DNA of 27,284 nt from Bacteroidales bacterium (GCA_021443125.1 JABUUQ010000001.1:1-27284); one strand, 5' to 3'. Shown: positions 2,727 through 27,123, counted from the stretch's first letter. Notes: a model not told the origin generated them from the letters alone. Made by a program: numbers and translations.

Positions 2727-2747
2727 TGTATTACAACCTGTAATACA
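2727..2747. promoter_or_regulatory. TGTAWTACA-N3-TGTAATACA element, copy 1
   Basis: TGTATTACA-ACC-TGTAATACA; 5 bp after the stop at 2753. Confidence 0.8.
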
Positions 2748-2752
2748 ATTTA

Positions 2753-2971
2753 CTATTCCTTTATCTTTCTAGGACGCCCTGTTGTTTTTAAACCTCGTTC
2801 ATCTTTTAGTAGCTCTTCTACTCCACCACTTTTATATTTTCTTTCCCAAAGCCTTATAGCACCTCTCGAAGCAATATTGAGTTTCTCCATAACTTCTGGA
2901 TATGACAATCCCGCTTCTCTTAATTTAACAGCTTCTACTTTTATTTTGTCATCATATCTTCCAACACTCAT
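2753..2971 (-). CDS. Small HTH protein resembling the DNA-binding domain of IS3/IS150-family OrfA
   Basis: YDDKIKVEAVKLREAGLSYPEVMEKLNIASRGAIRLWERKY..GGVEEL...GRPRK; likely start ATG 2971. No OrfB/DDE domain nearby. Confidence 0.65.
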   Translation of the reverse strand: MSVGRYDDKIKVEAVKLREAGLSYPEVMEKLNIASRGAIRLWERKYKSGGVEELLKDERGLKTTGRPRKIKE

Positions 2972-2993
2972 TTTATAACCCCACATTATTATT

Positions 2994-3026
2994 AAAAAAA
3001 GCTACCTTATACTTTAAGGTAACTTT
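2994..3026 (-). terminator. Intrinsic terminator downstream of ardC
   Basis: Minus strand: GTTACCTTA-AAGTA-TAAGGTAGC followed by U7. Confidence 0.8.
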
Positions 3027-3032
3027 CTTTAA

Positions 3033-3061
3033 ATTATAGTCCAAGCTCTTTTAATTGTCAA
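3033..3061 (-). promoter_or_regulatory. Perfect consensus promoter TTGACA-17-TATAAT overlapping the ardC stop codon
   Basis: TTGACA 3061-3056 (contains the ardC TGA at 3060-3058), 17-bp spacer, TATAAT 3038-3033. Confidence 0.75.
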
Positions 3062-4083
3062 TCATCGTTCATTTCTAATTCTTTTTCTTGTTCTTTTTCT
3101 TTCTTCAAGGCTAGTATATCTACTACTTGTATTTGTGGCTCTTTTTCTTTTATGCTTTTTTCCAGTTCAACTGTTTGTTCTATCCCTTTATATTCTTTTA
3201 CAATAAAATTTGCAATATCTTCTGCGTCTGATGAAGCTCTATATATTTCATTTGGATCTTTATCAAGTATAGAGATCCAAGACCTTATATATTCTTGATT
3301 ATTTTCAAATTGTCTATCTGTTACTGGCAAATTTAACTGATTTTGTAAAAACATTGAGGAAATTTCAGCCCTTAATTCTTCCCTTGCATAATTTGGCGAT
3401 CCAAATTCTCCTGTAAGATCTCTATCTAATCTTTCTTTGTGTCCTGTACTGTGAGCCATTTCATGAAGTAAGGTTGAAGCCAATGCAAGATCATTTGTAA
3501 ATAAATCCTGATTAGGTAAGAGAATAACATCTTTACTAGGAATATAACAAGCTCTATCCTGATTTGCATATTCAATCAAGCATTTTGAACTTTTCTCTAA
3601 ATTTCTTATCACTTCCTGAATTTTTTCATCTTTTATTCTTTCAGGTATTTCAAAGGCTGGAGCTCCTTCAACTTCTGTAAAATTAAATACTTTAAAATAA
3701 CTAACACTTGGAGATCTTAAAGGTACATTTTTTTTCTCTATTTCCCCAGTTTCTGCGTTTATTTCTTCTATAGTCTTTGAGAATCTCCAATGTTCGCATA
3801 CAACGCCTTTAGCACCTTTATTTAATTTATATCCCTTATCTGCTATCTGCTTAAATGTAGCCCACCTAGGATCTTTATAATCATTTAGTAAAGCAATTGT
3901 TCCAAGTTTTAATTTATTTCCTCCATGATACTCTGTTCCATTTATTCCATTGTGAGGGGTACAAAGTGAACTCCATTCTTTAAACCACTCAATACCCTTT
4001 TTATCCAAGTTTTCTATTATAATTTCAACAAGTTTTCTCCGTTCTTCCTGAATAATATCAAAAGCTGTCTTTTTTTCACTCAT
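3058..4083 (-). CDS. ardC: ArdC-family antirestriction protein (ssDNA-binding N-domain + zincin-like MPTase domain)
   Basis: Motifs PHNGINGTEYHGGN, DPRWATFKQ...G..L.KGAKG, LLHEMAHSTGH..RLDR (HExxH) and YAREELRAE. Confidence 0.92.
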   Translation of the reverse strand: MSEKKTAFDIIQEERRKLVEIIIENLDKKGIEWFKEWSSLCTPHNGINGTEYHGGNKLKLGTIALLNDYKDPRWATFKQIADKGYKLNKGAKGVVCEHWRFSKTIEEINAETGEIEKKNVPLRSPSVSYFKVFNFTEVEGAPAFEIPERIKDEKIQEVIRNLEKSSKCLIEYANQDRACYIPSKDVILLPNQDLFTNDLALASTLLHEMAHSTGHKERLDRDLTGEFGSPNYAREELRAEISSMFLQNQLNLPVTDRQFENNQEYIRSWISILDKDPNEIYRASSDAEDIANFIVKEYKGIEQTVELEKSIKEKEPQIQVVDILALKKEKEQEKELEMNDD

Positions 4084-4358
4084 TAGTTATCGTCTCCTTT
4101 AAACTCATGAGTTCCCTCAATATCATCATCATATCCATTCTCTTCAAAAGCCCCATATTTCTTCTTAATATCTTCAATAGTATCTTTTTCTTCTGTCTTT
4201 TTCTCTATAATATCTAGATTTTCAAATTTTTTTTCCTTGCCTCCCTGGATCGATTTTTTTTCTTCCTCTTTTGCTTCTTTATATTTTATTATATTCATAC
4301 CTATAAATACTAATATACAAAGAATTAAACCTACAATTACTAAATTTGTTAATAACAT
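4083..4358 (-). CDS. Single-pass membrane protein, hypothetical
   Basis: N-terminal hydrophobic helix, acidic tail; RBS AGGAGG; stop overlaps the ardC start. Confidence 0.7.
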   Translation of the reverse strand: MLLTNLVIVGLILCILVFIGMNIIKYKEAKEEEKKSIQGGKEKKFENLDIIEKKTEEKDTIEDIKKKYGAFEENGYDDDIEGTHEFKGDDN

Positions 4359-4370
4359 TTTTGCCTCCTT

Positions 4371-4916
4371 TTATAACTCCATATTAATTATCAATTTTTC
4401 AATATCTATTTTTTTCATGACCTTTCTATCTTCAAATATCATTTTCTGCTCTTTATTTATAGCTCTTACCATAAAGCCAAACTCATTAAATTCTAATTCT
4501 AAAAGGATTTTTTTATTCTTATCTAAAAACTTTATAGATCTAGGAAAATTATCTTCTTGAAGTTTATTAATATTTCTTATCTTTCTATCCATAACTAATT
4601 CTACATATGAATACTTTTCCTCAATTTTAAAATCTTCTCTTTTCATTGGATCTATTATCCAATCTTCAATAAAGATTGAAGGATCTCCTATCCAACCACA
4701 AAACCAACCGCTTCTTAATTCTTTTACTTTTTCATCTTTAGAAATATATACTCTATGCTGACGATGTCTATTATTAACATGGAGAATATAATTCTTATCA
4801 AAAATAATATTTTTTTCATAGATAAAAAATCGTTCATATTCTTCTGGACTTAATAAGATTTCTTTTCTTCCAAAGGTATTTTTTAATAAAATACTTATAA
4901 ACTTAGGTACTTTCAA
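4371..4916 (-). CDS. Hypothetical protein (181 aa, TTG start)
   Basis: RBS GGGAGG before the TTG; in an operon with ardC. Confidence 0.7.
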   Translation of the reverse strand: MKVPKFISILLKNTFGRKEILLSPEEYERFFIYEKNIIFDKNYILHVNNRHRQHRVYISKDEKVKELRSGWFCGWIGDPSIFIEDWIIDPMKREDFKIEEKYSYVELVMDRKIRNINKLQEDNFPRSIKFLDKNKKILLELEFNEFGFMVRAINKEQKMIFEDRKVMKKIDIEKLIINMEL

Positions 4917-4948
4917 TTTAACCTCCCTAAATAACTAAATATAGTATT

Positions 4949-4986
4949 AAAATCTTGTGGCCAATTAGAAATTAGCACAAGATTTT
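4949..4986 (-). terminator. Terminator after topoisomerase III
   Basis: AAAATCTTGTG/CACAAGATTTT stem; the inner C.A mismatch reads as G.U on the minus strand. Confidence 0.7.
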
Positions 4987-4991
4987 GTGTT

Positions 4992-7097
4992 TTACTTTTT
5001 CTTTTTACCCTTTACAAATGAATCAAATCTTAAATTTGGATAATTATTTTCTACAACTAGCTTTAAATTAGCTTCATATTCATTTCCTGCTGTACTTTTC
5101 AATTTTGCTGGTATTGTTTTTCCTTCAAGAAGTTTTTTAACTTTAGAAACTGTCAATTTTACTTGATTTTCTTTGTTAAAATTCATTGTTTCCCAAAGTG
5201 TAAATTTACACCCCTCTTTATAGCCTGAACAAGAATAAGTTATTTTTCCCGTTTTAGTTTTCCCCTCATAAATGGGCTTTTTACAAATAGGACATTTTCC
5301 TATTTCTTCTTTTAAATCATTTTTTGCTATTTTTTCTATTTCTATCTCTGTTTTTATTATTTGTTCTAATTCTTTTTCTGCCATTTCTATAACTTCTTCT
5401 ATCTTTTTTTCACCTTTATAGACTTTTTTTAAAATTTTACTGAATTCTACTGTTTTTTCTTTATAAAGATTTATATTTAATTTATCAAGAACTTCTATTA
5501 GTTTTTCTCCCAAAGGCTCTAATGAAAGGTTAGAATTTTTTCTGGATATATAATTTATATCTATTGCATTTTCTATAATTCCCGTTCGAGTTGCATTTGT
5601 TCCAATCTCTATACCTTCAAATATTGCTTTGTATTCTTCATCTTCTGTAGTTTTTTCTGAACGAAACGGATTTTTTAAAAAGTTTCCCAGTTCATCTTCT
5701 GTAGCTTTTTTAGGAGCAGTTGTTTTTTTCTTTACTGGCTTAAAATCTACCTCAAAATTTTCTCCTTCTTCTAATTTAGGTAAATTATTTTCAATTTTTT
5801 GAGGCTCATATTTTAAAAATCCCTCTTGCTTTATACTTTCCCCTTTAAATTCAAATACTTCATCTGCTACTTTTAATGTTACAATAACCTGATCTATTAT
5901 TGTATCTTCTTTAAGAAAATTACTTATAAACCTATTAAAAACAGTTTTATATACTGTTTTTTCTGTTTCATCTGTAATATCTTTTTCTATATCTGGTATC
6001 TTGGTAGTTATCGTTATAGCACTATGACTTTCTATTTTAGAATCATTGAATATTTTTTTTGTATCTTTAAACTCAACATTAAAATCAGATAATTTACTTA
6101 AAATTTCTTTTACTTTATCTTTTTCAGCTTCCCCCATATATTCTGAATTAGTTCGAGGATATGTTAAATATCCTTTCAGATATAAAGATTGGATAGCTTT
6201 CATAGAAGTTGAAAAGTTGATTTTATAATTTTTTGATAAAAGCCCTTGTAAATTATCTAAAGAAAATAATTTACTAGGATATTTTCTTGTTTCTTTTTTT
6301 TCTATTTTAGTTACTATAGCTTTATTTTTATTTAGTTCTGTAGCAATTCTTTGTGCTTTTTCTTCTTCATTTTCATTAAATTTTTTATCTTTTATTGATA
6401 GTAATAAGTCTATATCCCCAACCTTTAAAGAACTTTCTAATTGATAATAAGTTTCTGGCTTAAAATTTTTGATTAACATTTCTCTATCATAAACAAATTT
6501 TACAACTGGTATTAAAACTCTACCAGCTCTTAAAAGTGTTCCCGCTTTTATTGTTAAATATCTTGTTATATTAATACCTAAAAGCCAATCAAGATAAGTT
6601 CTAGCCAAACACTCATCGTGCAGATTCTTGTATTTGCTATTATCAGGTAAATTATTTACCTGTTTTTTTATGGTTTCTTCTGTTTGTTCTGGCAACCACA
6701 GTCTTTTCACGGGCTTATTTGTTCCTATGTTAGCAATAATAAGATCTATTATTATTTGCCCCTCCCTCTCTGCGTCACCGCAGTTTACTATTTCTTTCAC
6801 ATCTTCTCTATTTACCAATTCCTTTAAAATCTTATATCTTCTTTTTATTTCATCATCATCTTTTAACCCAAATTTAAAATCTTGTGGAATGAAAGGAAGC
6901 TTGGTATCTTTCCAAGCCATCTTATCCACTCCTAAGTATTTTTCTACGTCGTAAAGCTCAAATAAATGCCCTTTTGCCCAAGAAACAATATATTTATCAT
7001 TCTCATAATATCCATTTTGCTTATTAAATGCTTTCAAGGCTTTAACTACTGCTATAGCTAAGCTTGATTTTTCAGCTATTATTAGTGTTTTTTCCAT
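4992..7097 (-). CDS. topB: Type IA DNA topoisomerase III, plasmid type, with C-terminal zinc ribbon
   Basis: Toprim motifs LIIAEK, SWAKGHL and CGDAEREGQ; active-site GYLTYPRT; CPICKK...CSGYKEGC. Confidence 0.95.
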   Translation of the reverse strand: MEKTLIIAEKSSLAIAVVKALKAFNKQNGYYENDKYIVSWAKGHLFELYDVEKYLGVDKMAWKDTKLPFIPQDFKFGLKDDDEIKRRYKILKELVNREDVKEIVNCGDAEREGQIIIDLIIANIGTNKPVKRLWLPEQTEETIKKQVNNLPDNSKYKNLHDECLARTYLDWLLGINITRYLTIKAGTLLRAGRVLIPVVKFVYDREMLIKNFKPETYYQLESSLKVGDIDLLLSIKDKKFNENEEEKAQRIATELNKNKAIVTKIEKKETRKYPSKLFSLDNLQGLLSKNYKINFSTSMKAIQSLYLKGYLTYPRTNSEYMGEAEKDKVKEILSKLSDFNVEFKDTKKIFNDSKIESHSAITITTKIPDIEKDITDETEKTVYKTVFNRFISNFLKEDTIIDQVIVTLKVADEVFEFKGESIKQEGFLKYEPQKIENNLPKLEEGENFEVDFKPVKKKTTAPKKATEDELGNFLKNPFRSEKTTEDEEYKAIFEGIEIGTNATRTGIIENAIDINYISRKNSNLSLEPLGEKLIEVLDKLNINLYKEKTVEFSKILKKVYKGEKKIEEVIEMAEKELEQIIKTEIEIEKIAKNDLKEEIGKCPICKKPIYEGKTKTGKITYSCSGYKEGCKFTLWETMNFNKENQVKLTVSKVKKLLEGKTIPAKLKSTAGNEYEANLKLVVENNYPNLRFDSFVKGKKKK

Positions 7098-7110
7098 TTT
7101 TCCTCCTAAA

Positions 7111-7386
7111 TTAGCTTTTTTTCAAGTATATAATCTGAATTCCTTCACTATTTTTATATGATTTTTTTATCTCTAAAGCTATATCTATATCCAAGTTAGA
7201 GTTTTCTTTTTTTAATATTCTCAATTTCTTAGAAAAGCTATTCTTTTTATTTATTCTCTCTAAATAATTCATAAGTTCCTGATAATCTACTGTATTATCT
7301 TTTAAAGAAATAACTCGTGATAAACTTTTAGAGTATATTCTTAAGTTAGCCAATAAAAATTTTTTATCATAAATAAATATAGCCAT
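7111..7386 (-). CDS. Hypothetical basic protein (91 aa)
   Basis: Translationally coupled to the upstream beta-barrel gene (overlap at 7386). Confidence 0.6.
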   Translation of the reverse strand: MAIFIYDKKFLLANLRIYSKSLSRVISLKDNTVDYQELMNYLERINKKNSFSKKLRILKKENSNLDIDIALEIKKSYKNSEGIQIIYLKKS

Positions 7387-8330
7387 TAGAATTTATATTG
7401 AATTCCCGCTGTAATCATACTTTCAGTATTAGAAGTATTTAAAGATTTTCTACCTTGTAAAGAAACATAAGTTGTTATAATTTCAGCCACATCATAGCTT
7501 CCTTTTATTTCAATTGTTAAACTATCCTTAAAATCATCTTTCATTCTATCTTTATATATTCTTTCTTCCATAAATTCTCTTTCATATCCAGCTAACAATT
7601 CAATACTTACTTTGTGATCGTTTGCTACTTCAATTTCTTTTTTAGCTATTCCTTTAATTCCAGCCTTTACACTATCATTTGTTTTCTTTAGCTCTTTTTC
7701 TTTAGTCCTTAACTGTTTTCCCTCAATATCAATTCTATATCCTTTATAAAGCTCATTGTATATCTCTTCAATATGCTCATATCTAGTATGAACTCCCCAA
7801 TAAGTATTATCTCTTTTTTCATCATTTTTCTCTTTCTCATCTGCGGATCCAACATAAGCAATTGTTTGAAAATTTTTATTATCTTCTTTTTGACTATGAA
7901 ATAAGCTGAAATGATACCCCTTTCCATCATATTTAAGTCCAGCATATTTATTTTCAAAATCATTATAAGTAAATGCCATACCTATTCTATTTTCTTCATC
8001 TAAAGAAGTACCTAAAACTACAGATACATTCGGACTTTTTAAATCTCTTCCATTCAAATATCCAGCATTAATTTTAAAAAGATAATCAGTTTCTAGATTA
8101 TCGTTTTTCAAAGTTTCAAATAATATGTCATTATTATTTTGTAATAGTCTATAGATATTTTTTATATTATCAACTGGCGATTTTTCAGAATTTATATTCT
8201 TATAATTAAGTTCAACAGAAATTCCTGATACTCCTTTTTCTTTTTCAACTTCTGGAAGTCCTACCCCCAAATCATAAGCATAAATATTTAATGATGATAA
8301 AGCTGTTAATATAATAAAAGTTTTTTTCAT
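7386..8330 (-). CDS. Outer-membrane beta-barrel protein (autotransporter beta-domain-like, no passenger)
   Basis: Signal peptide MKKTFIILTALSSLNIYA, alternating amphipathic strands, C-terminal BAM-type signal ITAGIQYKF. Confidence 0.7.
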   Translation of the reverse strand: MKKTFIILTALSSLNIYAYDLGVGLPEVEKEKGVSGISVELNYKNINSEKSPVDNIKNIYRLLQNNNDILFETLKNDNLETDYLFKINAGYLNGRDLKSPNVSVVLGTSLDEENRIGMAFTYNDFENKYAGLKYDGKGYHFSLFHSQKEDNKNFQTIAYVGSADEKEKNDEKRDNTYWGVHTRYEHIEEIYNELYKGYRIDIEGKQLRTKEKELKKTNDSVKAGIKGIAKKEIEVANDHKVSIELLAGYEREFMEERIYKDRMKDDFKDSLTIEIKGSYDVAEIITTYVSLQGRKSLNTSNTESMITAGIQYKF

Positions 8331-8341
8331 AAATCTCTCCT

Positions 8342-8995
8342 TTAATCATAGTTTAATTCAGTCTTAACAAATAGTTTTTTAATTATTTTATCTAAATTTT
8401 CATTTTTTTTAATTAGTGTCTTAGCAGAATATCGTTTAGCTTCATGAATTCCGCATAAACGATATAAAATAATATAATCTGTATGCATTGCTTCTGCAAT
8501 TTGCTCCAAATTATAATAATTTAATTTAGAGATCATTGCATATTCCAAAGCTTGAATCTCTCCCTTGTCAATTTTCGCCTTTTCAGCCAGTTCTTGACAG
8601 TCCATTTTCATTTCTTCTCTTATTTTTTTAATAAAATTTCCTAATTTAACTCTGTTTGATTTTGGAATTATAAAAGTGTCATATAAAGAAATTTTATTTA
8701 AACAATATTTTTTATCTCTTTTACTCAAAGTTAAAAATTCTTTTAAAAAATCTTCTACTAAATATTCAGGAAAACATCTTTTTAAATACTTTATAGTAGA
8801 AAGTGGCATACCGTGCTGTTTTTCTTCCTTTTTTTCACGTATTTTTAATATTAAAAGTAAAAGTAAATAAAAAATACATATTGTAGCTCTAATAAAAGAA
8901 GATCCAAAACAAAATAAAGCAATCATACAACCTAAAAATAATAATAGCCCTATTAAATATAAAATTTTTTTTATTCCTACAAAATTTTCAAACAT
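8342..8995 (-). CDS. Membrane-anchored XRE-family HTH protein
   Basis: Two N-terminal hydrophobic helices; C-terminal IKKIREEMKMDCQELAEKAKIDKGEIQALE...NLEQIAEAM (XRE/Cro pattern). Confidence 0.7.
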   Translation of the reverse strand: MFENFVGIKKILYLIGLLLFLGCMIALFCFGSSFIRATICIFYLLLLLILKIREKKEEKQHGMPLSTIKYLKRCFPEYLVEDFLKEFLTLSKRDKKYCLNKISLYDTFIIPKSNRVKLGNFIKKIREEMKMDCQELAEKAKIDKGEIQALEYAMISKLNYYNLEQIAEAMHTDYIILYRLCGIHEAKRYSAKTLIKKNENLDKIIKKLFVKTELNYD

Positions 8996-9012
8996 TTATA
9001 CTCCTTTTTAAT

Positions 9013-9032
9013 TCTGGGGTGTATGCCCCAGA
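9013..9032. other. GC-rich hairpin just upstream of the RBS of the XRE gene
   Basis: TCTGGGG-TGTATG-CCCCAGA. Confidence 0.55.
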
Positions 9033-9045
9033 CCCCCTATATTGC

Positions 9046-9096
9046 GTTTTCAGAAATTTCATATTTCTCTTTGAGAAACATAAAATTTCTAAAAAC
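9046..9096 (-). other. 24-bp stem-loop fully paired only on the minus (mRNA) strand
   Basis: 21 Watson-Crick pairs plus 3 C.A mismatches on the plus strand, all of which are G.U on the minus strand; 3-nt loop. Confidence 0.65.
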
Positions 9097-9201
9097 ACTC
9101 AAAAGGTATATTCCAAACTGCATAAAATCAAATTTAAATAGTTTCAATCCTCTTTCTAGTATAAAATATCCTTTTCCTATTAAATACGCTTAAAATCAAT
9201 T

Positions 9202-9696
9202 TTAGAAAGGATAAATTAATTTTGCTTTTTTCTGAATAATATTCAATGGAAGTGTTCCCCAATATCTCCCATCCCAGCTCTTTTCATGAGGTGCTAGAGG
9301 TAAAAATTCCCCTTTTTGTGGCTGTAATTTCTCTACTGTTAATTCAGGAAACTTATACCCCTCACTATCTGCCTTTTGTATTTTTCCATATAGAAATCCA
9401 TTAATATAAAGACTATCTTCTTTGATTTCCACCTTGTCATTTTCTAAAGCTCCTATTTCTTTTAACATTGCTTTACAAAATCTTGGAATATAATTTTTAA
9501 CTTTTGCTTGTGCTGGAACTTCAAAAAGAACTATATCCCCTTTATTTAACGTTTTATAATTTCTCATAAAGTAAATTCCTCTTGGTAAACTAGGAGTAAG
9601 ATTAATTGTAAAAAAATTACTTCCTAGTATTAAAAGACCACTAAAGATCCCAAGAATTAAAACTCTTCTTAAGAAAAGTTTATGTTTATTTTTCAT
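9202..9696 (-). CDS. traF: S26-family conjugal pilin-processing peptidase (IncP TraF-like)
   Basis: NLTPSLPRGIY (Ser), LKEI (Lys), SWDGRYWG. Confidence 0.9.
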   Translation of the reverse strand: MKNKHKLFLRRVLILGIFSGLLILGSNFFTINLTPSLPRGIYFMRNYKTLNKGDIVLFEVPAQAKVKNYIPRFCKAMLKEIGALENDKVEIKEDSLYINGFLYGKIQKADSEGYKFPELTVEKLQPQKGEFLPLAPHEKSWDGRYWGTLPLNIIQKKAKLIYPF

Positions 9697-14315: not shown

Positions 14316-14336
14316 TGTATTACAAGTTGTAATACA
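14316..14336. promoter_or_regulatory. TGTAWTACA-N3-TGTAATACA element, copy 2
   Basis: TGTATTACA-AGT-TGTAATACA; 8 bp after the trbB stop. Confidence 0.8.
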
Positions 14337-14344: not shown

Positions 14345-15280
14345 TCATTTTTTTATATCATCTAAAATATAATTATTATTTTCATCAAGTCCTTTCATTC
14401 TCTTTATTTCAACTATTTTTCTTTTGTTGCCAATTTTTTCTAATACTATAATTAAATTTATATTATCAGCTATCAATTCTTTTTGAGGATTTAAAGACTC
14501 TCTTAAGATATATTGTTCCAACTGTCTAAGACCTTTTAAAGCGGTATGAGAATGTATCGTACAAACTCCACCCCCATGTCCTGAATTCCACCCAGTTAAT
14601 AAGTATAAAGCTTCTTTTCCTCTTACCTCCCCAACTACCAATCTTTCAGGAGTTCTTCTTAAAGAATGTTCTATAACTTTTACCATTGGAAAAGTTGGAG
14701 AAGTCAATAATCTAAGAGTATTTTGTGACTTGCATTGTATTTCTTTAGTATCCTCTGCTATCAATAATCTTTCTTTTGTTGCTTCTATTTCAGCTATACA
14801 AGCATTTGCAAATGTAGTTTTTCCGCTTCCTGTCGCCCCAATTATAAGAATATTTTCTTTATTTCTAATTGACTCACAAATAATCTCTTTTTCTTCTTTT
14901 GAAATATTTCCTTGTTTAATATAATCATCTAAAGAAAATATTAAAATAGAATGTTTTCTTAAATTAAATGAGGGAGGACTAACTGGATTTATTGAAGCAG
15001 AAAAACGGCTACCATCTGGAAAAGTCGTTTCTAAAGTAGGAGCTATCTCATTAACTATTATTCCTTCATAATCTGCTACAAGCCTAATTATTGATAAAGT
15101 TTTTTCCTCTTCCATCTTTTTTTCGGTATCTATCCACCCTTTAGAGAAAGTACAGATAGAAACCATTTGATTGTCATTTACTGCTATTTCATTTACATCT
15201 TTATCTTCTATAAATCCTATAAGCTCTTTTCCTAAATTAAGTTTAATTAGCTTTAGTTTCTCTTCCTTCTGTTCGTTCAT
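14345..15280 (-). CDS. trbB: TrbB / VirB11 ATPase
   Basis: GATGSGKT, AEDTKEI, LRRTPERLVVGEVRG, HGGGVCTIH. Start at ATG 15280 or 15283 given RBS GGAGG. Confidence 0.95.
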   Translation of the reverse strand: MNEQKEEKLKLIKLNLGKELIGFIEDKDVNEIAVNDNQMVSICTFSKGWIDTEKKMEEEKTLSIIRLVADYEGIIVNEIAPTLETTFPDGSRFSASINPVSPPSFNLRKHSILIFSLDDYIKQGNISKEEKEIICESIRNKENILIIGATGSGKTTFANACIAEIEATKERLLIAEDTKEIQCKSQNTLRLLTSPTFPMVKVIEHSLRRTPERLVVGEVRGKEALYLLTGWNSGHGGGVCTIHSHTALKGLRQLEQYILRESLNPQKELIADNINLIIVLEKIGNKRKIVEIKRMKGLDENNNYILDDIKK

Positions 15281-15545
15281 CATCAACCTCCTCTTTCTCT
15301 TTTATTCCTTGATTGATGATTGGGATAATTTCTTTTAATTTTCCATTTATTTTATCTTTAAATTCTCTCTTTCTCCCATTTGTATTTAGAATCTCATAAA
15401 TATTCTCATCTTCCAATAAATCATTAAAAACAACTGCAAGAACTCTTTTCTTTTTTTCCTCCCATTCTTTATCTACTTTTTCTAGCTGTTCTAAAAATTT
15501 TTTTCTTTTCTCTGCTAGAGAAATTTTTTTTCTTTTTTCATTCAT
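15243..15545 (-). CDS. Hypothetical charged coiled-coil protein (100 aa)
   Basis: Starts 2 bp after the traG stop and overlaps the trbB start. Confidence 0.65.
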   Translation of the reverse strand: MNEKRKKISLAEKRKKFLEQLEKVDKEWEEKKKRVLAVVFNDLLEDENIYEILNTNGRKREFKDKINGKLKEIIPIINQGIKEKEEVDDERTEGRETKAN

Positions 15546-19504: not shown

Positions 19505-19526
19505 GAAAGCCATCATAAGGGAACTT

Positions 19527-20174: not shown

Positions 20175-20183
20175 AATCAACTC

Positions 20184-20507: not shown

Positions 20508-20540
20508 TTGAAAAACCTCCTTTTAAATTTGTTGTATCCC

Positions 20541-20568: not shown

Positions 20569-20579
20569 CCATTTTATAG

Positions 20580-20608
20580 TTGATTTTTATTTTAACTTAG
20601 TATATAAT
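20580..20608 (+). promoter_or_regulatory. Divergent promoter TTGATT-17-TATAAT towards oriT/mobA
   Basis: TTGATT 20580-20585, TATAAT 20603-20608; back-to-back with the trb promoter. Confidence 0.6.
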
Positions 20609-20736
20609 TAACTAAGAAAAGTTTAATAGTAGGTAATTTTACAAGTTGCTATCTATAAAAAATAGCAAAAATTTAGAAAAAGAGGCTTTATTCAAAAAGA
20701 CATGAATATCCCTCTTAATTTTTTTAAAAATTATAG

Positions 20737-20778
20737 AGGGCACGTTTAAGGGTATCTCGTACCGAGATACCCAACGTG
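20737..20778 (-). other. oriT: Origin of transfer (MOBQ-type), variant nic core
   Basis: Minus strand: GGGTATCTCG-GTA-CGAGATACCC, T, then TAAACGTGCCCT. Same layout as MOBQ oriTs (IR + TAAGTGCG^CCCT); about 135 bp upstream of the relaxase. Confidence 0.72.
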
Positions 20779-20911
20779 ATTTTTTCTTTCAGAAAAAATG
20801 TCGCAATGCTCAACCCTAAAGGGTGTTGACTTTGTCAACGTCAACCAATCATCAGCTTATAGCTGACCGCCCAATCTTGGACTTGATAAAAAAATTTTAG
20901 GAGGCTAAATC

Positions 20912-23395
20912 TTGGCAATTTATTTTTGTAGATTAAGTCATGGTAAAGTTGGTAGTGGTATTCCACACTATCAATATATTCACGGTTTAGGAAAATACAG
21001 CTATAAAGAAAATGAAGTTGCATACAAAACTGAACATATGCCAGAATGGGCTTCTGCTGATGGAGAAAATTTTTTTCAGAATGCTGATGAACACGAAGGG
21101 GCTAATAGAGCAGTTTATAAAGAAATAAAAGTTGCTCTTCCAAATGAATTTTCTTTAGAAAAAAATCAAGAAATTTTAGAAGAATTTCTAAAAAAAGAAC
21201 TTGGAAAAAACTACTATTATTCTGCTGTTATCCATGACAAAGAAATTGAAAAAGGAATAAGACAAAATATTCATGCTCACATAATGTTTTCTACTAGAGA
21301 ACTTGATGGAGTTGAGAGAAACAATGAGTTATTTTTTAAAAAGGCTAATACAAAAAATCCTCATTTGGGAGGGTGTGCTAAAAATCCTAAATGGGATTCT
21401 AACAATAAAAAAACTGTAGAAGAAATTAGATTATCATGGGAACAAACTTTAAATAAGCATTTAATAGAACATGACATTGAACCAGTAAGCAGACTTTCTT
21501 TAAAAGAACAATATCAAAATGCACTTTTAGAAAAAGACTATGACAAGGCAAAACTTTTGAAAAGAAAAGCTATCAATTGTCAAATGCAAATATTAAAAAA
21601 AGTGTCTGCTGATATTCCTCTTAATCGTAGTGAAGAAAAACAATATAAAAAATATTTAAAAGCTAAAGAAGTTAAATACAGACTTGAAAAAGAATATGAG
21701 CAAATTATCACTTCAAGAGAAAAAGTCAATGAGAAGAAAATAGAATTAAATTCAATACAAGAAAAGTTGGCTAGTATAAATCAACCACAAGAATTCATTG
21801 ATAAAAAGTTTAATTCTTTTATTGAAGTAGAACAAGAACTTTTAAAGCTAGAAAAAGAAATACAAATGATAAAAACAGCTTCATCTTTATCTAATGTTCA
21901 GGTATCAGCAATAGAAAGTATTCATACTGGATTTGAAAAATTACATAAGGAACAAGATTTTTATATAGATAAATTAAATTCTTTGGAAAATGCAGAAGAA
22001 GCAGAAGAAGAAAAAATGAAACATTATACTTCCAAGGTAGCCGATATTCAAGAAAAAATAGATGTTATTGTTAAAACAATAAATCCTGATATTTTAAATA
22101 AATTAACTGCTGAAAAGAAAGTAGAATTAAATGAAAAATTAACACATATACAATCTGAAAAAGATCATTTAAGAACAGTAAGAGAAAACTTATATCAACA
22201 GGCAGATATTAATAAAATTGCTATTGATAAAGTTACTCTAAATAATAAATTCGGCTCATCACTTGAAAAGTTGGTAGATCTTGATTATAACTTAAAAGTT
22301 TTAACTAAAAATTTATCTCGAACAGAAAAACAGCTTGATGGAGATAATTTAAAAGAAACAGCAAAAAATATCTTAACAAAAGGCGAATATAGAAAAACTA
22401 CAGAAGAATTAAATCGTTGTATTGACAACATGAATTCCATTGCTAGAAATATAAATGGAGGAATGTATGATGATAGAAAAGATTTATTAATAAAAAAACA
22501 TGAAGAATATGCAAACTTAAAAGAAAAATTAGAAGTATTAAGATCGAAAGAAAATCAATTAAATAAGTATCTTGGTAAATCACATTCTAAACTTATGAAA
22601 ATTGAAAAAAGTATGGAAAATAAACTAAATACAAGACGAGAAAAACTTTTAGATGAAAGATTTATCATGTTACAAGAAATTCAATTTTATAAATTATATC
22701 TAGCAGAGCCAAAAACACAAGATGTTAAAGAGGTTTTTAATTCTAAATATGCAAAATATAAAGATCAAATTGAAATAGCTACTCATGAACTTTCACGCTT
22801 AGAGAAAATTCATGAAATACTTAAAGAAAACTTAAGCCATGCTAATTTAAAAAATCTTGCTTATAACAAAATTACTAAAGGAGAATATAATAAAGTCCTA
22901 AAAGAATACGGCACTTTAGAAAAGCAAATAAAAGACCTTGAAACAGTAAAGAATTCTTTAAGTAGATTAAATCCAAAAGTATTAATTTTAAATGGAGAAA
23001 TCAACAAGTTGGAAAAACAAAAAGAAGATTTGAAAGAAAAATATAAAACTATGCTAAAAGAAATTGATCCAAAAGTATTTAAAGAAACTCTAAAATCATT
23101 AGAAAATCATAGAGCAAAAACACTTGGAAACATCAAAAAACAAATTGGAAAACAAAAAAATATTAAGTTTGAATTTACTGTTAAAAAATCTACTATTTAC
23201 AAGCTAAGAGAAGAAGTTTATCCTTATAGCTTTGAAAAATTTAAAGCTAAAGCTAATACTTTAAATTTATTCCAGAATTATAAGGGTACAGATTATAGTA
23301 GTCATTCTCGAAATCTTTTTGATGAAGAGGAAGAAAGAAGAAAACAAAGGGAAAAAGAAAGAGAAAAATTACAAGAATATGACTTAGAATTATAA
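20912..23395 (+). CDS. mobA: MobA/MobL (MOBQ) relaxase with a long coiled-coil C-terminus
   Basis: TTG start with RBS AGGAGG; MAIY..., HMPEWA, EIKVALPNEFS, IHD...NIHAHIMFSTR (3H motif). Confidence 0.93.
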   Translation: MAIYFCRLSHGKVGSGIPHYQYIHGLGKYSYKENEVAYKTEHMPEWASADGENFFQNADEHEGANRAVYKEIKVALPNEFSLEKNQEILEEFLKKELGKNYYYSAVIHDKEIEKGIRQNIHAHIMFSTRELDGVERNNELFFKKANTKNPHLGGCAKNPKWDSNNKKTVEEIRLSWEQTLNKHLIEHDIEPVSRLSLKEQYQNALLEKDYDKAKLLKRKAINCQMQILKKVSADIPLNRSEEKQYKKYLKAKEVKYRLEKEYEQIITSREKVNEKKIELNSIQEKLASINQPQEFIDKKFNSFIEVEQELLKLEKEIQMIKTASSLSNVQVSAIESIHTGFEKLHKEQDFYIDKLNSLENAEEAEEEKMKHYTSKVADIQEKIDVIVKTINPDILNKLTAEKKVELNEKLTHIQSEKDHLRTVRENLYQQADINKIAIDKVTLNNKFGSSLEKLVDLDYNLKVLTKNLSRTEKQLDGDNLKETAKNILTKGEYRKTTEELNRCIDNMNSIARNINGGMYDDRKDLLIKKHEEYANLKEKLEVLRSKENQLNKYLGKSHSKLMKIEKSMENKLNTRREKLLDERFIMLQEIQFYKLYLAEPKTQDVKEVFNSKYAKYKDQIEIATHELSRLEKIHEILKENLSHANLKNLAYNKITKGEYNKVLKEYGTLEKQIKDLETVKNSLSRLNPKVLILNGEINKLEKQKEDLKEKYKTMLKEIDPKVFKETLKSLENHRAKTLGNIKKQIGKQKNIKFEFTVKKSTIYKLREEVYPYSFEKFKAKANTLNLFQNYKGTDYSSHSRNLFDEEEERRKQREKEREKLQEYDLEL

Positions 23396-23397
23396 AT

Positions 23398-23503
23398 GAG
23401 GCTATGAAGGCGTAAAATCAATTTTAAGGGTAGGGGAAAAATTTGATATGGATTTATTGAATCAAGTTTAAAAAATCGGTTAAAATTGATTTTGCAAAGC
23501 CTC
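23398..23503. repeat. Spaced inverted repeat between mobA and the traD-like gene
   Basis: AAAATCAATTTTAA (23414-23427)/TTAAAATTGATTTT (23480-23493), with outer GAGGCT (23398-23403)/AGCCTC (23498-23503). Confidence 0.6.
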
Positions 23504-23527
23504 AAAGCGTTTAAAAAGAGGTGTTAC

Positions 23528-24004
23528 ATGGATTTATTAAATAAAAAAAGAAAATTAGAAGATAAAATTAAACGAAATGACCGTCAAATGAGAATTGAAC
23601 AAGCTCGTATGACAGAAAAACAAAGAAAAGAAAGAGCTCATCGCTTAATTAAACTTGGAGCACTTTTTGAAATTGCTAAATTAGATCATTTAGAAGCCTC
23701 TGTTTTACTTGGATATTTATTAAACTATCCAAAAGACAGAAATGATTTAATAGATCTTTTTTTTAAAGCTGGAAGTGAAGAACTTGAAAATAGAAAAGTG
23801 AAAAAAAAGAAAATAGATAATTATCATCAGGAAGAAAAAACTTTTACAACAGCTGATATTTTAGCTTTATTTGAATTAGCTCAAGAGAAAAAAGTTGATA
23901 TTGTTTGGGAAATGCAACAAAAATTTAAAAAAAAGTTAATTGAAGATTTAACCTATAGTCAATTTGAATATTTAAGAAATTATGTAATCTTATATAAAAA
24001 TTAA
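23528..24004 (+). CDS. traD: TraD/MobC-like relaxosome accessory protein
   Basis: RKERAHRLIKLGALFE..L....LLGYL pattern; start reassigned to ATG 23528 (RBS GAGGTG). Confidence 0.72.
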   Translation: MDLLNKKRKLEDKIKRNDRQMRIEQARMTEKQRKERAHRLIKLGALFEIAKLDHLEASVLLGYLLNYPKDRNDLIDLFFKAGSEELENRKVKKKKIDNYHQEEKTFTTADILALFELAQEKKVDIVWEMQQKFKKKLIEDLTYSQFEYLRNYVILYKN

Positions 24005-24122
24005 TTTTAAAAAAAATAAGAAAAAAAATCTTATTCTTATTTAAAAAGAATTCTTTTTATCTTATTTAATTATTCTTTTTAGAGCATACTCAAAATGCTT
24101 ATATAGAGATAGTTTTAAATAT

Positions 24123-24267
24123 ATTAATGAGTACTAAAAACTGCAAAATGGAATAATAAAGCGTACCAAAAACTGCATTAATGAGTACTAAAAACTGCAA
24201 AATGGAATAATAAAGCGTACCAAAAACTGCAAAATAAAATATTAATGAGTACTAAAAACTGCAAAAT
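24123..24267 (+). repeat. Iteron array (oriV): 5 copies of GTACYAAAAACTGCA
   Basis: Cores at 24131, 24163, 24185, 24217 and 24249 (spacing 32/22/32/32); includes an exact 54-bp tandem duplication; AT-rich flanks; upstream of rep. Confidence 0.85.
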
Positions 24268-24453
24268 AATTTTTATAAATTTTTTAAGAGGATAATTGAA
24301 TAAAAAAAAAGTTTATTATTTCATATAAATTATGTATTATAGGAATTTATAAATATAATTGTATATATACAATAATAAAAAATAAAATATAGAATTTTTT
24401 ATAAGTTATTCTTGAAATTAAATTTGTAATTTTATTTTTAAAATTTTAGGTAA

Positions 24454-24474
24454 TGTATTACAAGTTGTAATACA
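24454..24474. promoter_or_regulatory. TGTAWTACA-N3-TGTAATACA element, copy 3
   Basis: TGTATTACA-AGT-TGTAATACA; 14 bp upstream of the rep -35. Confidence 0.8.
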
Positions 24475-24488
24475 AAAAAAAATAAAAT

Positions 24489-24517
24489 TTGACTATGTTA
24501 AAAAAAAAAGATACCAT
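24489..24517 (+). promoter_or_regulatory. rep promoter TTGACT-17-TACCAT with A10 in the spacer
   Basis: TTGACT 24489-24494, A10 at 24500-24509, TACCAT 24512-24517. Confidence 0.65.
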
Positions 24518-24545
24518 AAAAAAGTAGACATTGAGAGGAGAGAAA

Positions 24546-25715
24546 ATGAGAGAAAATGAAAAAAAAGATATTGTAATTCATCAAAACAAATTATCTTATG
24601 GAAAATTTGAAGAATTTGAATTAAGGGAATTGAAACTTTTATTAAAATTGATTGCTGAATATTCAAAGGATCCTCAACCTAAAGTTTTTTTAGAGGCTAA
24701 AGATATAAAAAGATTTGTAAATATGGAAAGAGATAATTATTCAGTATTTGAAACTTTGATAAGAAGATTAGGAAAAAGAGAAATATTAATAAAAGATCCA
24801 GAAAAAAATAGATATGTAGTATATCATATCTTTTCAAAATTATATTTTGATTTAGATAATAAGGTAGTAGAACTTAGCTATACTCCTGATTTTTTACCAT
24901 TAATCAGTAATTTAGAGAAAAATTTTTGTAAATATGATTTAGAAAATATAGAAAAATTAAAAAGTAAATATTCAGTATTATTTTATATAAGGGCTAAAGC
25001 TGAAATGTTTAAAAAGAAATTTTATTTAAGTGCTGATGAATTAAGTAGTTTGTATGGTAAAAAATATTTAGAGGATAGAAATCTTGATAAAAAGGTAATT
25101 TTTCCAATGTTGAAAGAAATAAATGAACATACAGACATAGTTATTTCTACAGAAAAGGAATATGAAGCACAGCAGAGGGGAAGAAGTAAAGTTAAGGGAT
25201 ATATATTTAAAATTGATAAAAAAACATTAACTGTATCTCCTGAACTGGAAAAAGCTATTGCCAAAGCTAAAAGAAATATTTATATAGCAAAATCAAAGAC
25301 TTTAAATGATGGAACTGTACAAATTTTACTGGGAAGTATGAATGAAGCTCAATTAATAGCTGGACTTAATAGAGCCTATGAAGTTATAAATAAAGACTTT
25401 ATAGCTCTTAAATATTTACAAAAAGTAATTGAACAAGCAGAAGTTACAGAAAAAAACATTAAAGATAGTAAAGTAGGGGAACCAACAAAGAAGAAAAAAG
25501 AAAAAGAAATTCCTAAAGTTAGTGATGAAATATTAGCAATGGAAATTGAAATAATAAGCTATGCAGTAAATAAAATGAACATAGATAAAGGATTTTTTGA
25601 GACTATGAAGAGAAATAATAATATGCTGTATAAATTGACTTTAGCAGAATATAAAAAAGAAATGGATCAAGAAAAAGAAAAAAAAGAAAAAAGCATTGAT
25701 GGCACAATGCTTTAA
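24546..25715 (+). CDS. rep: Rep_3-family plasmid replication initiator
   Basis: IVIHQNKL, ELKLL..LIA, Y..LISNL..NF..Y....I..LKSKYS..FY, LDKKVI...LKEIN; adjacent to iterons. Start at ATG 24546 (RBS GAGGAG). Confidence 0.88.
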   Translation: MRENEKKDIVIHQNKLSYGKFEEFELRELKLLLKLIAEYSKDPQPKVFLEAKDIKRFVNMERDNYSVFETLIRRLGKREILIKDPEKNRYVVYHIFSKLYFDLDNKVVELSYTPDFLPLISNLEKNFCKYDLENIEKLKSKYSVLFYIRAKAEMFKKKFYLSADELSSLYGKKYLEDRNLDKKVIFPMLKEINEHTDIVISTEKEYEAQQRGRSKVKGYIFKIDKKTLTVSPELEKAIAKAKRNIYIAKSKTLNDGTVQILLGSMNEAQLIAGLNRAYEVINKDFIALKYLQKVIEQAEVTEKNIKDSKVGEPTKKKKEKEIPKVSDEILAMEIEIISYAVNKMNIDKGFFETMKRNNNMLYKLTLAEYKKEMDQEKEKKEKSIDGTML

Positions 25716-25784
25716 AAAAATAAAAAAACAAATATAACTAACTTTATGATAATGGAAATTTAAAGAAAAATCAAGGAGGATTTT

Positions 25785-26294
25785 ATGAAAAAATTATTAA
25801 GACCATTATTTGTTGGGTTTTTATTGATTTTAGGAGGGTGTGGCGGAGAAAAAAATCAAATTCCAAAACAATATCTGGGAAAATATAAAGCTGTAAGTGC
25901 TACTGCCAAAATAACTGAAAAAGGAAATATAATAGATGATGGTACTATAGAAGGTTTTGCAACTTTGGCTAAAAAAGGAGATAGGTATATTTTAAAAATA
26001 GAAAGAAATGATAATGAAGTTGTTGAAACAGATGATGTAATAGGTAAAATAGTGAAAGAGAGAGCAAGTGCTAATATAGAGTTAAATGCTAAATTAGAAA
26101 CAATAAAAGGAAAAGCAGGAGAGTTTCAAGAATTTTATGTAGCAAATTTTTGGGATACAAAAATGACAGGCGATGAAAATAAACAGGCTACAAGTCTTTG
26201 GCAAGTATTAAGAATTGAAAAAGAACTTATTTTCACAAAAGAAAATAATAGATATGTATTAACTATTGCTGGATTTAGGTTTATAAAGGAATAA
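25785..26294 (+). CDS. Lipoprotein, unknown function
   Basis: Signal peptide with lipobox LGG-C (Cys19); RBS AGGAGG. Confidence 0.8.
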   Translation: MKKLLRPLFVGFLLILGGCGGEKNQIPKQYLGKYKAVSATAKITEKGNIIDDGTIEGFATLAKKGDRYILKIERNDNEVVETDDVIGKIVKERASANIELNAKLETIKGKAGEFQEFYVANFWDTKMTGDENKQATSLWQVLRIEKELIFTKENNRYVLTIAGFRFIKE

Positions 26295-26300
26295 AAAAAC

Positions 26301-26321
26301 TGTATTACACTTTGTAATACA
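26301..26321. promoter_or_regulatory. TGTAWTACA-N3-TGTAATACA element, copy 4
   Basis: TGTATTACA-CTT-TGTAATACA; 6 bp after the stop at 26294. Confidence 0.8.
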
Positions 26322-26347
26322 AAAAGGAAGAGTGAAAGAGAGGACTT

Positions 26348-26500
26348 ATGTTAAGAGCATTATTCTGTATTTGTTTTGGAGTATTATTTTTTATTTTTGA
26401 TAAAAAGATAAGAAGTAAATCTGTCAAAAATATTTTTCAACTTATAGGTTTTCTCTATATTGTTGCTGGGATATTTGGCTTAATATATGGTACAAAATAA
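26348..26500 (+). CDS. Unannotated 50-aa two-helix membrane protein
   Basis: Manual translation: MLRALFCICFGVLFFIFDKKIRSKSVKNIFQLIGFLYIVAGIFGLIYGTK*. RBS GAGAGG; bounded by element copies 4 and 5. Confidence 0.68.
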   Translation: MLRALFCICFGVLFFIFDKKIRSKSVKNIFQLIGFLYIVAGIFGLIYGTK

Positions 26501-26502
26501 AC

Positions 26503-26523
26503 TGTATTACAACTTGTAATACA
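26503..26523. promoter_or_regulatory. TGTAWTACA-N3-TGTAATACA element, copy 5
   Basis: TGTATTACA-ACT-TGTAATACA; 2 bp after the stop at 26500. Confidence 0.8.
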
Positions 26524-26542
26524 AAAAAATAAGGAGGAAAAA

Positions 26543-26821
26543 ATGACTAAAAAAGAATTTATTGAGTTGTATTTTACAAAAGGAGGATTTACTACAAAAG
26601 CAGACGCAGAAAGAAAAGCAATAGCTTTTTTAGATGTTATTGAAGAAGGGCTATTAAAAGGAGAAGATATCACTTTTTTAGGTTTTGGAAAATTTGAAGT
26701 TGCTGATCGTTCAGCAAGAGAAACTAGAAATCCACAAACTGGGGAAAAAATGCAAGTTCCAGCGAAAAAGGTTGTAAAATTTAAAGCTGGTAAAGCTTTA
26801 GCGGAAAAAGTTAATAAATAG
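26543..26821 (+). CDS. hup: HU-family DNA-binding protein
   Basis: MTKKEFI..., GEDITFLGFGKFEV..R..R..RNPQTGE...PAKKVVKFKAGKAL. Confidence 0.95.
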   Translation: MTKKEFIELYFTKGGFTTKADAERKAIAFLDVIEEGLLKGEDITFLGFGKFEVADRSARETRNPQTGEKMQVPAKKVVKFKAGKALAEKVNK

Positions 26822-26830
26822 TAAAATAAT

Positions 26831-26851
26831 TGTAATACAAGTTGTAATATA
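26831..26851. promoter_or_regulatory. TGTAWTACA element, copy 6 (direct-repeat variant)
   Basis: TGTAATACA-AGT-TGTAATATA; 9 bp after the hup stop. Confidence 0.7.
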
Positions 26852-26883
26852 ACAATAGGTATCTAGCATTAAAGAGGTGAATT

Positions 26884-27093
26884 ATGAAACAATTTGAAAT
26901 TTATCAAACTGAAGAAAGAGGTATTCCAGATTATTTAGATGGAACTGATAGTGAAAGTTTAAAAGAAACTGTATTTTTTTCAACATTAGGAGAAGCGAAA
27001 GATTATGCACGAGAAAAATATGGGGATTGTATTGTTAGATGGATACGAAAAGATGGACAGATGGGATATGCTGATTATGAAGTGAGAAAATAA
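26884..27093 (+). CDS. Hypothetical protein (69 aa)
   Basis: RBS GAGGTG; bounded by element copies 6 and 7. Confidence 0.72.
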   Translation: MKQFEIYQTEERGIPDYLDGTDSESLKETVFFSTLGEAKDYAREKYGDCIVRWIRKDGQMGYADYEVRK

Positions 27094-27102
27094 TAAATTA
27101 AA

Positions 27103-27123
27103 TGTAATACAAGTTGTAATACA
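27103..27123. promoter_or_regulatory. TGTAWTACA element, copy 7 (direct-repeat variant)
   Basis: TGTAATACA-AGT-TGTAATACA; 9 bp after the stop at 27093. Confidence 0.75.

Follow-up and report, generated by a model that had tools for sequence, protein, structure and literature searches.

What reads a 21-bp element that recurs at gene junction after gene junction of a plasmid, and what would its binding do there? The question is raised by a 27,284-nucleotide stretch of DNA from a Bacteroidales bacterium assembly (positions 1-27284 of contig C11 in genome G000; the whole stretch is called the window here), in which pairs of the 9-bp unit TGTAWTACA (W being A or T) stand at seven places. Comparison with related plasmids indicated that the 21-bp element is most likely the DNA docking site of an unnamed DNA-binding protein encoded by the plasmid itself, and our candidate for this protein is one of 183 amino acids (aa) whose gene lies just past the window end. 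Contig C11 is 29,452 bp long with a 56-bp terminal overlap and was therefore taken to be a circular plasmid of ~29.4 kb. Its G+C content is 27%, and its topB gene is 82% identical to topB of Fusobacterium varium plasmids, the sole megablast match of the window among plasmids. By its sequence, C11 is a conjugative plasmid of Fusobacterium type.

The paired 21-bp site

TGTAWTACA occurred 13 times in the window, against 0.26 expected from shuffled sequences and a shuffle maximum of 2. The 13 exact units made up the paired 21-mers at 2727, 14316, 24454, 26301, 26503 and 27103 together with one unit of the copy at 26831, whose second unit (TGTAATATA) had one mismatch, and the copy at 27103 carried an extra third unit, degenerate, at 27127 (TGTATAATA). 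Six copies followed a stop codon at distances of 5, 8, 6, 2, 9 and 9 nt, and the copy at 24454 ended 14 nt before the TTGACT (24489-24494) of the rep promoter. A preliminary description made from the sequence alone had listed seven copies with these stop-codon gaps, 14 bp to the rep -35 and a 12-bp spacing of the units, and all of this was found as claimed. Beyond the window, four further copies were located at 27507, 28096, 28332 and 29097 of contig C11, bringing the plasmid total to 11 paired sites on ~29.4 kb. The other 20 contigs of the genome (1.66 Mb) contained 0 paired copies and 147 lone GTAWTAC cores. Ten of the 11 copies were wholly intergenic, a placement that 10% of positions would permit (binomial P ~1e-9). 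The repeated 21-bp element is a genuine feature of this plasmid.

The copies in the window, with the promoter next to copy 3, are as follows (L133 is a relative 91-95% identical to C11).

2727..2747: site copy 1, TGTATTACA-ACC-TGTAATACA, between an HTH_28 gene (77 aa, 2753-2986, minus strand) and a 95-aa open reading frame (ORF; 2420-2707, minus strand)
14316..14336: site copy 2, in the type IV secretion system (T4SS) operon, between a virB11-like gene (14345-15286, minus strand) and a 52-aa ORF plus virB3 (minus strand)
24454..24474: site copy 3, with the iteron/AT-rich origin region on one side and the rep promoter on the other; L133 has it conserved, at position 523
24489..24517, plus strand: predicted rep promoter, TTGACT-17-TACCAT, a consensus match only; downstream of site copy 3
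26301..26321: site copy 4, after a lipoprotein gene and before a 50-aa membrane ORF
26503..26523: site copy 5, after the 50-aa ORF, with the start of the HU-like gene 19 nt further on
26831..26851: site copy 6, after the HU-like gene; second unit TGTAATATA, both units in direct orientation
27103..27135: site copy 7, after a 69-aa ORF and right before an intrinsic terminator; two direct units and a third, degenerate unit

At copy 1 the stop codon lay 5 nt before the site and the next start 19 nt after it, and copy 2 was retained in a metagenome contig (L130) that is 97.9% identical. The region of copy 7 (27103..27135) formed a tandem repeat with a period of 12 bp and 2.6 copies. Among the sites past the window end, 28096 fell within the linker-coding part of the 183-aa gene and 28332 stood 2 nt past its stop codon. 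Sites 28332 and 29097 had extended flanks in common (AAAG...CTTT), which suggests duplication. Near-identical intrinsic terminators (GGGATATG...CATATCCC followed by a T run) were present at 27136-27163 of the window and at 29130-29151 of the contig, each right behind a site copy, and both operons that hold most of the sites end in them.

Every copy consisted of two 9-bp units (T-GTAWTAC-A) placed 12 bp apart centre to centre, and this spacing was close to invariant across C11 and ten related loci. In these, 121 of 137 GTAWTAC cores had a partner at exactly 12 bp, and among the core-to-core distances of 40 bp or less 61 of 63 were exactly 12 bp and the other two 24 bp (11 loci). When C11 was compared with L133, the two differed at 2 of 144 unit positions, 5 of 24 spacer positions and 93 of 400 positions of ungapped flank, indicating selection on the units but not on the spacer. 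The 3-nt spacer was at times inverted to its reverse complement in relatives, as CTT against AAG (26301-26321 and L133 2431-2451) and AGT against ACT (24464, 26513). Such reverse complements are what loop inversion by template switching in a short palindrome would be expected to give.

Several other explanations of the repeat were tried and rejected. A host transcription-factor site was rejected on the absence of paired copies from the chromosome, and a miniature inverted-repeat transposable element or an element of the repetitive extragenic palindrome type (REP/BIME) because the repeat is too short and confined to the plasmid, with 0 pairs in the other 1.66 Mb. Iterons of the replication initiator were rejected as well, since these are distinct repeats of 22 and 32 bp at 24121-24267.

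The 183-aa protein as candidate binder

The gene of the 183-aa protein is located at 27778-28329 of contig C11, behind the clearest regulatory region that we found. Within the region, the strongest promoter-like sequence was TTGACA-17-TAAAAT (11 of 12 positions) at 27474-27502, followed in order by the site at 27507, which begins 4 nt after the -10, a conserved 51-aa ORF (27630-27785) and the 183-aa gene. Homologues of the small ORF, 46-51 aa long, precede the ~183-aa gene in L137, L140, L141, L144, L145, L146 and L149, are conserved at 43-54% identity and share the invariant motifs CYFK.LD and AI.IG.ALG. Because the small upstream ORF is conserved, we regard the two genes as a module; the ORF encodes a real small protein, which may be a partner or modulator of the DNA binder.

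The 183-aa protein is predicted to begin with a domain of four helices, which a linker of variable sequence joins to a C-terminal domain of the ribbon-helix-helix (RHH) type. Members of the RHH (MetJ/Arc) superfamily share a strand-helix-helix module of ~45 residues, an obligate dimer held together by an antiparallel sheet of two strands. The homodimer prediction for residues 118-183 (the C-terminal 66) scored 0.76, where the best of three controls scored 0.00, and of proteins with a solved structure, 20 of 30 one-chain pairs and 1 of 23 single chains attained the homodimer mark. Three runs agreed in at least 98% of contacts, with a partner pLDDT (predicted local distance difference test) of at least 84. 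The predicted cross-chain contacts followed i+j ~282 over residues 136-146, the pattern of an antiparallel two-strand ribbon centred on Ser141, and helices at ~147-159 and 165-180 followed the ribbon. Many RHH dimers have already been solved, so this result is taken as likeness to the RHH fold and not as proof of it; the C-terminal part of the protein is predicted to form an RHH-type dimer. The N-terminal 60 residues were modelled as a four-helix bundle resembling a helix-turn-helix (HTH) domain, with weak fold matches.

The protein belongs to a small and unannotated family. A profile search of 1.84 billion cluster representatives returned only 42 relatives, all of them unnamed, and tblastn against the PLSDB plasmids gave no match. 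Remote relatives that share only the C-terminal part had no Pfam match, and their cluster names were all 'hypothetical'. The look-alikes proposed by a protein language model included RHH_1/CopG, DUF5388 and DUF3408, but all scores were below 0.9 and the look-alikes therefore serve as leads only. Neither a ParB-type Pfam domain nor a CTPase domain was detected in the 183-aa protein, and a weak HTH_ParB match, below the cut-off, was obtained only for an unrelated 111-aa protein (1352-1687).

Support for this protein as the binder came from related conjugative plasmids in metagenomes, which encode homologues ~50-56% identical to it. None of these plasmids contained TGTAWTACA; they carried AGTAWTACT-N3-AGTAWTACT, which has the same core and the same 12-bp spacing as in C11. 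All family members down to ~50% identity whose contig was read carried paired GTAWTAC-type sites, including one from a later profile search, in a count that leaves out the distant members P0026 (L153) and P0019 (L157), where the motif was not resolved with confidence. The flanks of the core co-varied with residue 143, on the predicted strand and predicted to face the DNA, which was Arg with T..A flanks (C11, L133 and P0009) and Lys with A..T flanks, and this prediction held on three contigs fetched afterwards. Where the protein was missing the pairs were missing too: F. varium plasmid pFV113-g1-1, with a related backbone and no homologue, had 5 cores and 0 pairs in 42 kb, and 260 other species genomes of the family were without the 183-aa protein and the TGT-type motif and had 0 paired copies. 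A scan of genome contigs with the degenerate 21-mer brought up no relatives, its hits being isolated palindromes of the kind that chance produces, in unrelated organisms.

One unrelated metagenome contig, Ga0136651_10005560 (47% G+C), deserves mention in its own right. At L129 2213-2295 it holds six TGTAATACA/TGTATTACA units as two blocks of three in exact 12-bp phase, intergenic and beside methyltransferase-like and phage-like genes. Another protein may have come to use this unit and spacing independently.

A motif scan extended to the relatives, as the preliminary description had proposed, found variant sites at their gene junctions, so that the placement noted on C11 was kept. L140 carried 14 pairs in 15 kb and L144 10 pairs in 9.8 kb, mostly at gene junctions. 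In the AGT-type relatives sites were present at almost every non-overlapping gene junction, usually ending 15-22 nt before the next start, and in ten cases the first unit provided the TAA stop of the upstream gene. The promoter of the homologue gene had a conserved layout of two operators in these relatives, one site abutting the -35 (AGTATTACTTGACA) and the second ~58 bp downstream. Arrays of 3-4 units in 12-bp phase also occurred, some abutting a -35. The rigid 12-bp phasing, the arrays of 2-4 units and the co-variation of residue 143 with the unit flanks are indirect signs that RHH dimers may cooperate on such tandem or inverted units.

The sites also extended into the gene of the candidate itself. 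Most homologue genes held a site within their own linker-coding region, at one of two positions, and in more distant members, whose linker is otherwise unconserved, the peptide SNTKSIT was retained, which is what a perfect AGT-type site encodes. In P0026 (L153 1071-1226, PEAW01024298.1) the linker-coding region had three copies of AGCCATACA-AAA-AGTATGGCT (peptide SHTKSMA), a different inverted repeat with an arm spacing that is likewise 12 bp. Sites within the gene of the binder thus seem to be a trait of the whole family, with sequences that differ by lineage.

The preliminary description had expected a cooperative dimeric repressor of the Phd/YefM or RHH type. The RHH part of that expectation now has a candidate with a predicted dimer that co-occurs and co-varies with the motif, and the other part lost ground, as no Phd/YefM-type protein was found among the plasmid ORFs scanned. 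The HTH proteins at 1352, 2753 and 8342, named in the same description as binders to try, showed no link to the motif; the candidate, at 27778-28329, lies outside the window.

Whether a different protein reads the sites was considered with the following gene in mind.

27171..27284, minus strand: 3' part of a small HTH-like gene, 75 aa; the gene was read via relative L133 3666-3893 and crosses the window end

This 75-aa gene runs divergently to the operon that encodes the 183-aa protein, has no Pfam match and has its control region in common with site 27507. The 162 bases of C11 past the window end (27285-27446) read N, and in L133 the corresponding stretch is the middle of this gene. Other conceivable readers are further plasmid proteins, among them several of the HTH class and an HU, or a host factor, and within the module itself the reading could be done by the N-terminal domain of the 183-aa protein, or the 46-51-aa partner could play a part. 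However, the 75-aa gene, HU and the other HTH genes of the window were not conserved beside the motif in the AGT-type plasmids, while the pair of 46-51-aa and ~183-aa genes always was. The absence of paired sites from the chromosome makes a host factor unlikely. We consider it quite improbable that one of these other proteins is the binder.

The orientation of the units bears on a further alternative, that the element acts as RNA. The central W orients each unit, and by this measure the C11 pairs were 7 TA, 1 AT and 3 AA, and the pairs of the relatives 26 AT, 0 TA and 21 direct (~45% direct repeats). The inverted pairs thus fall into two polarity classes, TA in the C11 type and AT in the AGT type, which are equally stable as stems. 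A hairpin with a 9-bp stem and a 3-nt loop, used for processing or translation control, had been offered as an option in the preliminary description. Placed just ahead of each ribosome binding site (RBS), it would act on processing, stability or translation of the cistrons. It would account for the preferred inverted orientation, for the folding of the inverted copies at -7.6 to -14.2 kcal/mol, well below shuffles, and for the position of most copies in transcribed junctions 15-32 nt ahead of a start codon, where RNA-library contigs include them. However, the copies at 26831 and 27103 folded at -2.5 and -3.5 kcal/mol, no better than shuffles, and yet kept both units, and nearly half of the relatives' sites are direct repeats. 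No deviating copy had a compensatory change on both sides, and no copy had an Rfam match. The copy at 24454 has the origin on one side and rep on the other and precedes a promoter, and neither the arrays of 3-4 units in 12-bp phase nor the sites abutting a -35 have a hairpin logic. The single inverted polarity of each plasmid type is likewise unexplained by stem stability. An RNA element is therefore disfavoured, and we hold it to be very improbable.

Possible roles of the sites

The reading that we favour, with some reserve, is that the plasmid's 183-aa protein binds the dispersed double-stranded sites and uses them for autorepression and for a plasmid-wide damping of rep, transfer and cargo genes. 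One RHH dimer would sit on each 9-bp unit and two dimers would cooperate on each site. The best-supported step is that the 183-aa protein would shut off its own promoter, where the site begins just after the -10. Via the other sites it may damp the rep operon, the transfer genes and cargo, by analogy with omega and KorA/KorB, and its action at junction sites would be a roadblock to read-through transcription or an occlusion of weak internal promoters. The sites hug stop codons because the plasmid is compact and the gap between stop codon and RBS is the only room for a 21-bp site; beyond the site and the RBS a junction holds little else. The regulon proposed in the preliminary description survives in part: the sites touch replication, transfer and cargo genes, but clear operator geometry was seen only at the regulator's own promoter, so 'regulon' is used here as an inference.

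Metatranscriptomic-library contigs from one study bridged the sites at 26301, 26503 and 26831 without differences, and site 26503 was spanned by RNA-library contigs from runs X5 and X9. These data are assembled contigs, which show neither starts, ends nor levels of RNA, carry no information on uncovered parts and may include DNA carry-over. The bridging contigs place the sites inside polycistronic RNA, so that the sites are not terminators. An intrinsic terminator was also rejected as an identity for the element on its stems, which are AT-rich without a T run, and on the true terminators that follow copies 27103 and 29097.

Several observations weigh against the favoured reading. The RNA contigs ran straight through 26301, 26503 and 26831, so that any roadblock would be leaky. 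Promoter-like matches in the region numbered 41, compared with 37.8 in shuffles, and most junction sites had no recognisable promoter at a fixed distance; repression at the junction sites is therefore a conjecture. The strong preference for inverted units is not predicted by a pure independent-units model. The Arg143 proteins form one clade, which makes the co-variation a single evolutionary event. On the side of the protein, the monomer model was poor (pLDDT 62) with the RHH strand not formed, a fold search returned only generic helical pairs (Z up to 5.6), and neither Pfam, run on 15 family members with E up to 10, nor a PDB sequence search gave a match.

Much of the same evidence could be read as a system for partition or architecture, in which the same binder would use the sites as centromere-like or loading sites for partition, nucleoid tethering or compaction, as an adaptor of the ParR, ParG, omega or StbA type. 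The sites within the binder's own gene fit this, and parS sits inside some parB genes. The spread of the sites round the plasmid regardless of promoters fits as well, and no ParA, ParM or TubZ gene was detected among the plasmid ORFs scanned, which on a Rep_3 iteron plasmid would call for another stability mechanism. In L137, four site pairs recur at 60-bp intervals within one gene. In addition, omega of pSM19035 combines the roles of regulator and centromere binder (PMC9499535). Against this, no partner NTPase was conserved beside the binder gene, where the downstream genes vary from membrane ORFs (C11) to a 418-aa unknown (L136) and ORFs of 155 and 141 aa (L140), and the conserved operator geometry at the protein's own promoter argues for at least an autoregulatory role. 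This is the main rival to the favoured reading, though an unlikely one.

The L137 array is a 60-bp coding tandem repeat (L137 53-253, and L139 15-35) with one AGT-type pair per repeat, four consecutive, encoding the peptide SNTNGNT. It lies in the 3' part of a 523-aa gene upstream of a TraF-like peptidase. The repeat may conceal a centromere-like array within coding sequence, or the pairs may have arisen by chance in low-complexity coding.

Gene content also changed at the sites. The 69-aa ORF and site 27103 were present in C11 and absent from L133, a 172-aa ORF of C11 was replaced in L133 by an unrelated 171-aa ORF between two sites, and a pair of additional minus-strand genes, separated by a site, occurred in L133. 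In another sample, a DNA contig (X1) matched the window to 26849, the edge of site 26831, and then diverged. Such differences would be expected if the sites were recombination sites and the genes between them exchangeable cassettes, as with integron attC or pdif, with promoter binding being secondary; the central 3 nt, which vary and flip to the reverse complement, and a tyrosine recombinase on the plasmid would agree with this. The recombinase, however, is not conserved with the motif: that of C11 is of the tyrosine type and has a 13-7-13 repeat of its own, and the AGT-type plasmids have serine resolvases. The phased arrays of 3-4 units, the promoter sites and the in-gene site do not fit a crossover site, and an identical 21-bp patch suffices for occasional homologous or template-switch exchange. 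As the two plasmid types have different recombinases, we read the exchange at sites as a by-product of the identical 21-bp patches and not as their purpose, and we consider dedicated recombination sites improbable. A bolder proposal joins both observations. The sites would be cistron punctuation, bound by RHH protein for gene-by-gene gating at almost every junction and serving as preferred crossover points for small cargo genes, which amounts to an integrase-independent, operator-bounded cassette system. We give this proposal a low probability, like that of a partition role.

The rest of the plasmid can be described briefly. C11 encodes a Rep_3 initiator with iterons of its own, a T4SS of the VirB/Trb type, a MobA/MobL relaxase, TopB, ArdC and the HU-like protein. 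The short tyrosine recombinase (~194 aa) spans the contig junction, and a 13-7-13 inverted repeat at 653-685 (AATACTTGTCA...) lies beside and upstream of its gene, with a related composite site at 558-600; the repeat is probably the recombinase's own recombination or resolution site. A skipping-rope RNA (Rfam RF02924, 55 bits) is located at 738-808 on the minus strand, directly downstream of a PBECR3-type nuclease gene at 868-1233, also on the minus strand.

Relation to known systems

Fusobacterium and its relatives are of medical relevance and difficult to modify by genetic means, and to our knowledge almost nothing is known about the regulation or inheritance of their plasmids. A literature search on the motif strings gave nothing relevant, and one on Fusobacterium conjugative plasmids gave no description of the 21-bp element. 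The analysis supplies a defined 21-bp site and a candidate binder from an unannotated family, and the two natural specificity classes (TGT with Arg143 and AGT with Lys143) form a ready-made swap experiment. If the binding is true, the protein would be a new global plasmid regulator of the RHH type, and it would provide a compact orthogonal repressor-operator pair for AT-rich anaerobes. The link of the sites to breakpoints in gene content could help to explain how cargo genes move among plasmids. The plasmid probably has its own system of global control or DNA organisation, with a logic like that of well-studied plasmids.

Among these, omega is a global regulator whose sites at several promoters link copy control, stability and its own synthesis. 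Omega (ParB_pSM) of the inc18 plasmid pSM19035 is an RHH ParB that binds arrays of direct or inverted units and needs at least two adjacent units (PMC9499535). The likeness to C11 lies in a plasmid-encoded RHH-type dimer, which is predicted here, and in short repeated units in direct or inverted order. Omega, however, is ~71 aa long with a disordered N-terminal tail, binds contiguous 7-bp units and works with ParA (delta), whereas the C11 protein has 183 aa with a folded N-terminal domain and 9-bp units in 12-bp phase, usually two per site. In C11 the sites are spread over ~11 places, most of them cistron junctions, the scanned ORFs yielded no ParA, and the two proteins have no sequence similarity.

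In the IncP-1 plasmids RK2/RP4, KorB-OB and KorA-OA tie replication, transfer and stability together through a scattered palindrome, some copies of which lie on promoters and others at a distance (PMC11790492, PMC2665229). C11 likewise is a conjugative plasmid with a short palindrome scattered round it. The proteins differ, as KorB is a CTP-dependent sliding clamp of the ParB family and KorA an HTH protein, and for the 183-aa protein neither of these folds, nor a CTPase domain, was detected; the RK2 sites, in addition, are not squeezed into the short gap from a stop codon to the RBS that follows.

Arc and Mnt of phage P22 bind an operator of ~21 bp as two RHH dimers, which sit cooperatively on adjacent subsites about one helical turn apart. 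They differ from the C11 system in having single operators at one promoter region, proteins of 53-82 aa and a subsite spacing of ~11 bp and not 12. The operators of YefM-YoeB and Axe-Txe combine two short palindromes with the core TGTACA, whose centres are 12 bp apart. Only this spacing is in common with C11, where the core GTAWTAC has an extra central base and 11 sites take the place of one autoregulatory operator.

Integron attC sites are imperfect palindromes of 57-141 bp that recombine as folded single strands and need IntI, and the pdif sites of Acinetobacter are 28-bp XerC/D sites. Both resemble the C11 arrangement in their gene-plus-site units, in that small genes bounded by the repeat are present or absent, but C11 has a 21-bp site, recombinases that vary between plasmids and sites that also form operator arrays. 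The C1 operators of the phage-plasmid P1 are similar to the C11 sites as many copies of a short site at gene junctions of an extrachromosomal element; they differ in the element, the site sequence and the repressor fold, and the P1 sites lie on promoters of lytic genes.

The regulatory logic is thus already known from omega, KorB-OB and P1 C1. New here are an unannotated family in which a folded N-terminal domain precedes an RHH-like C-terminal one, the strict 12-bp phase of 9-bp units, their near-systematic placement at cistron junctions, sites in the binder's own gene and two natural specificity classes.

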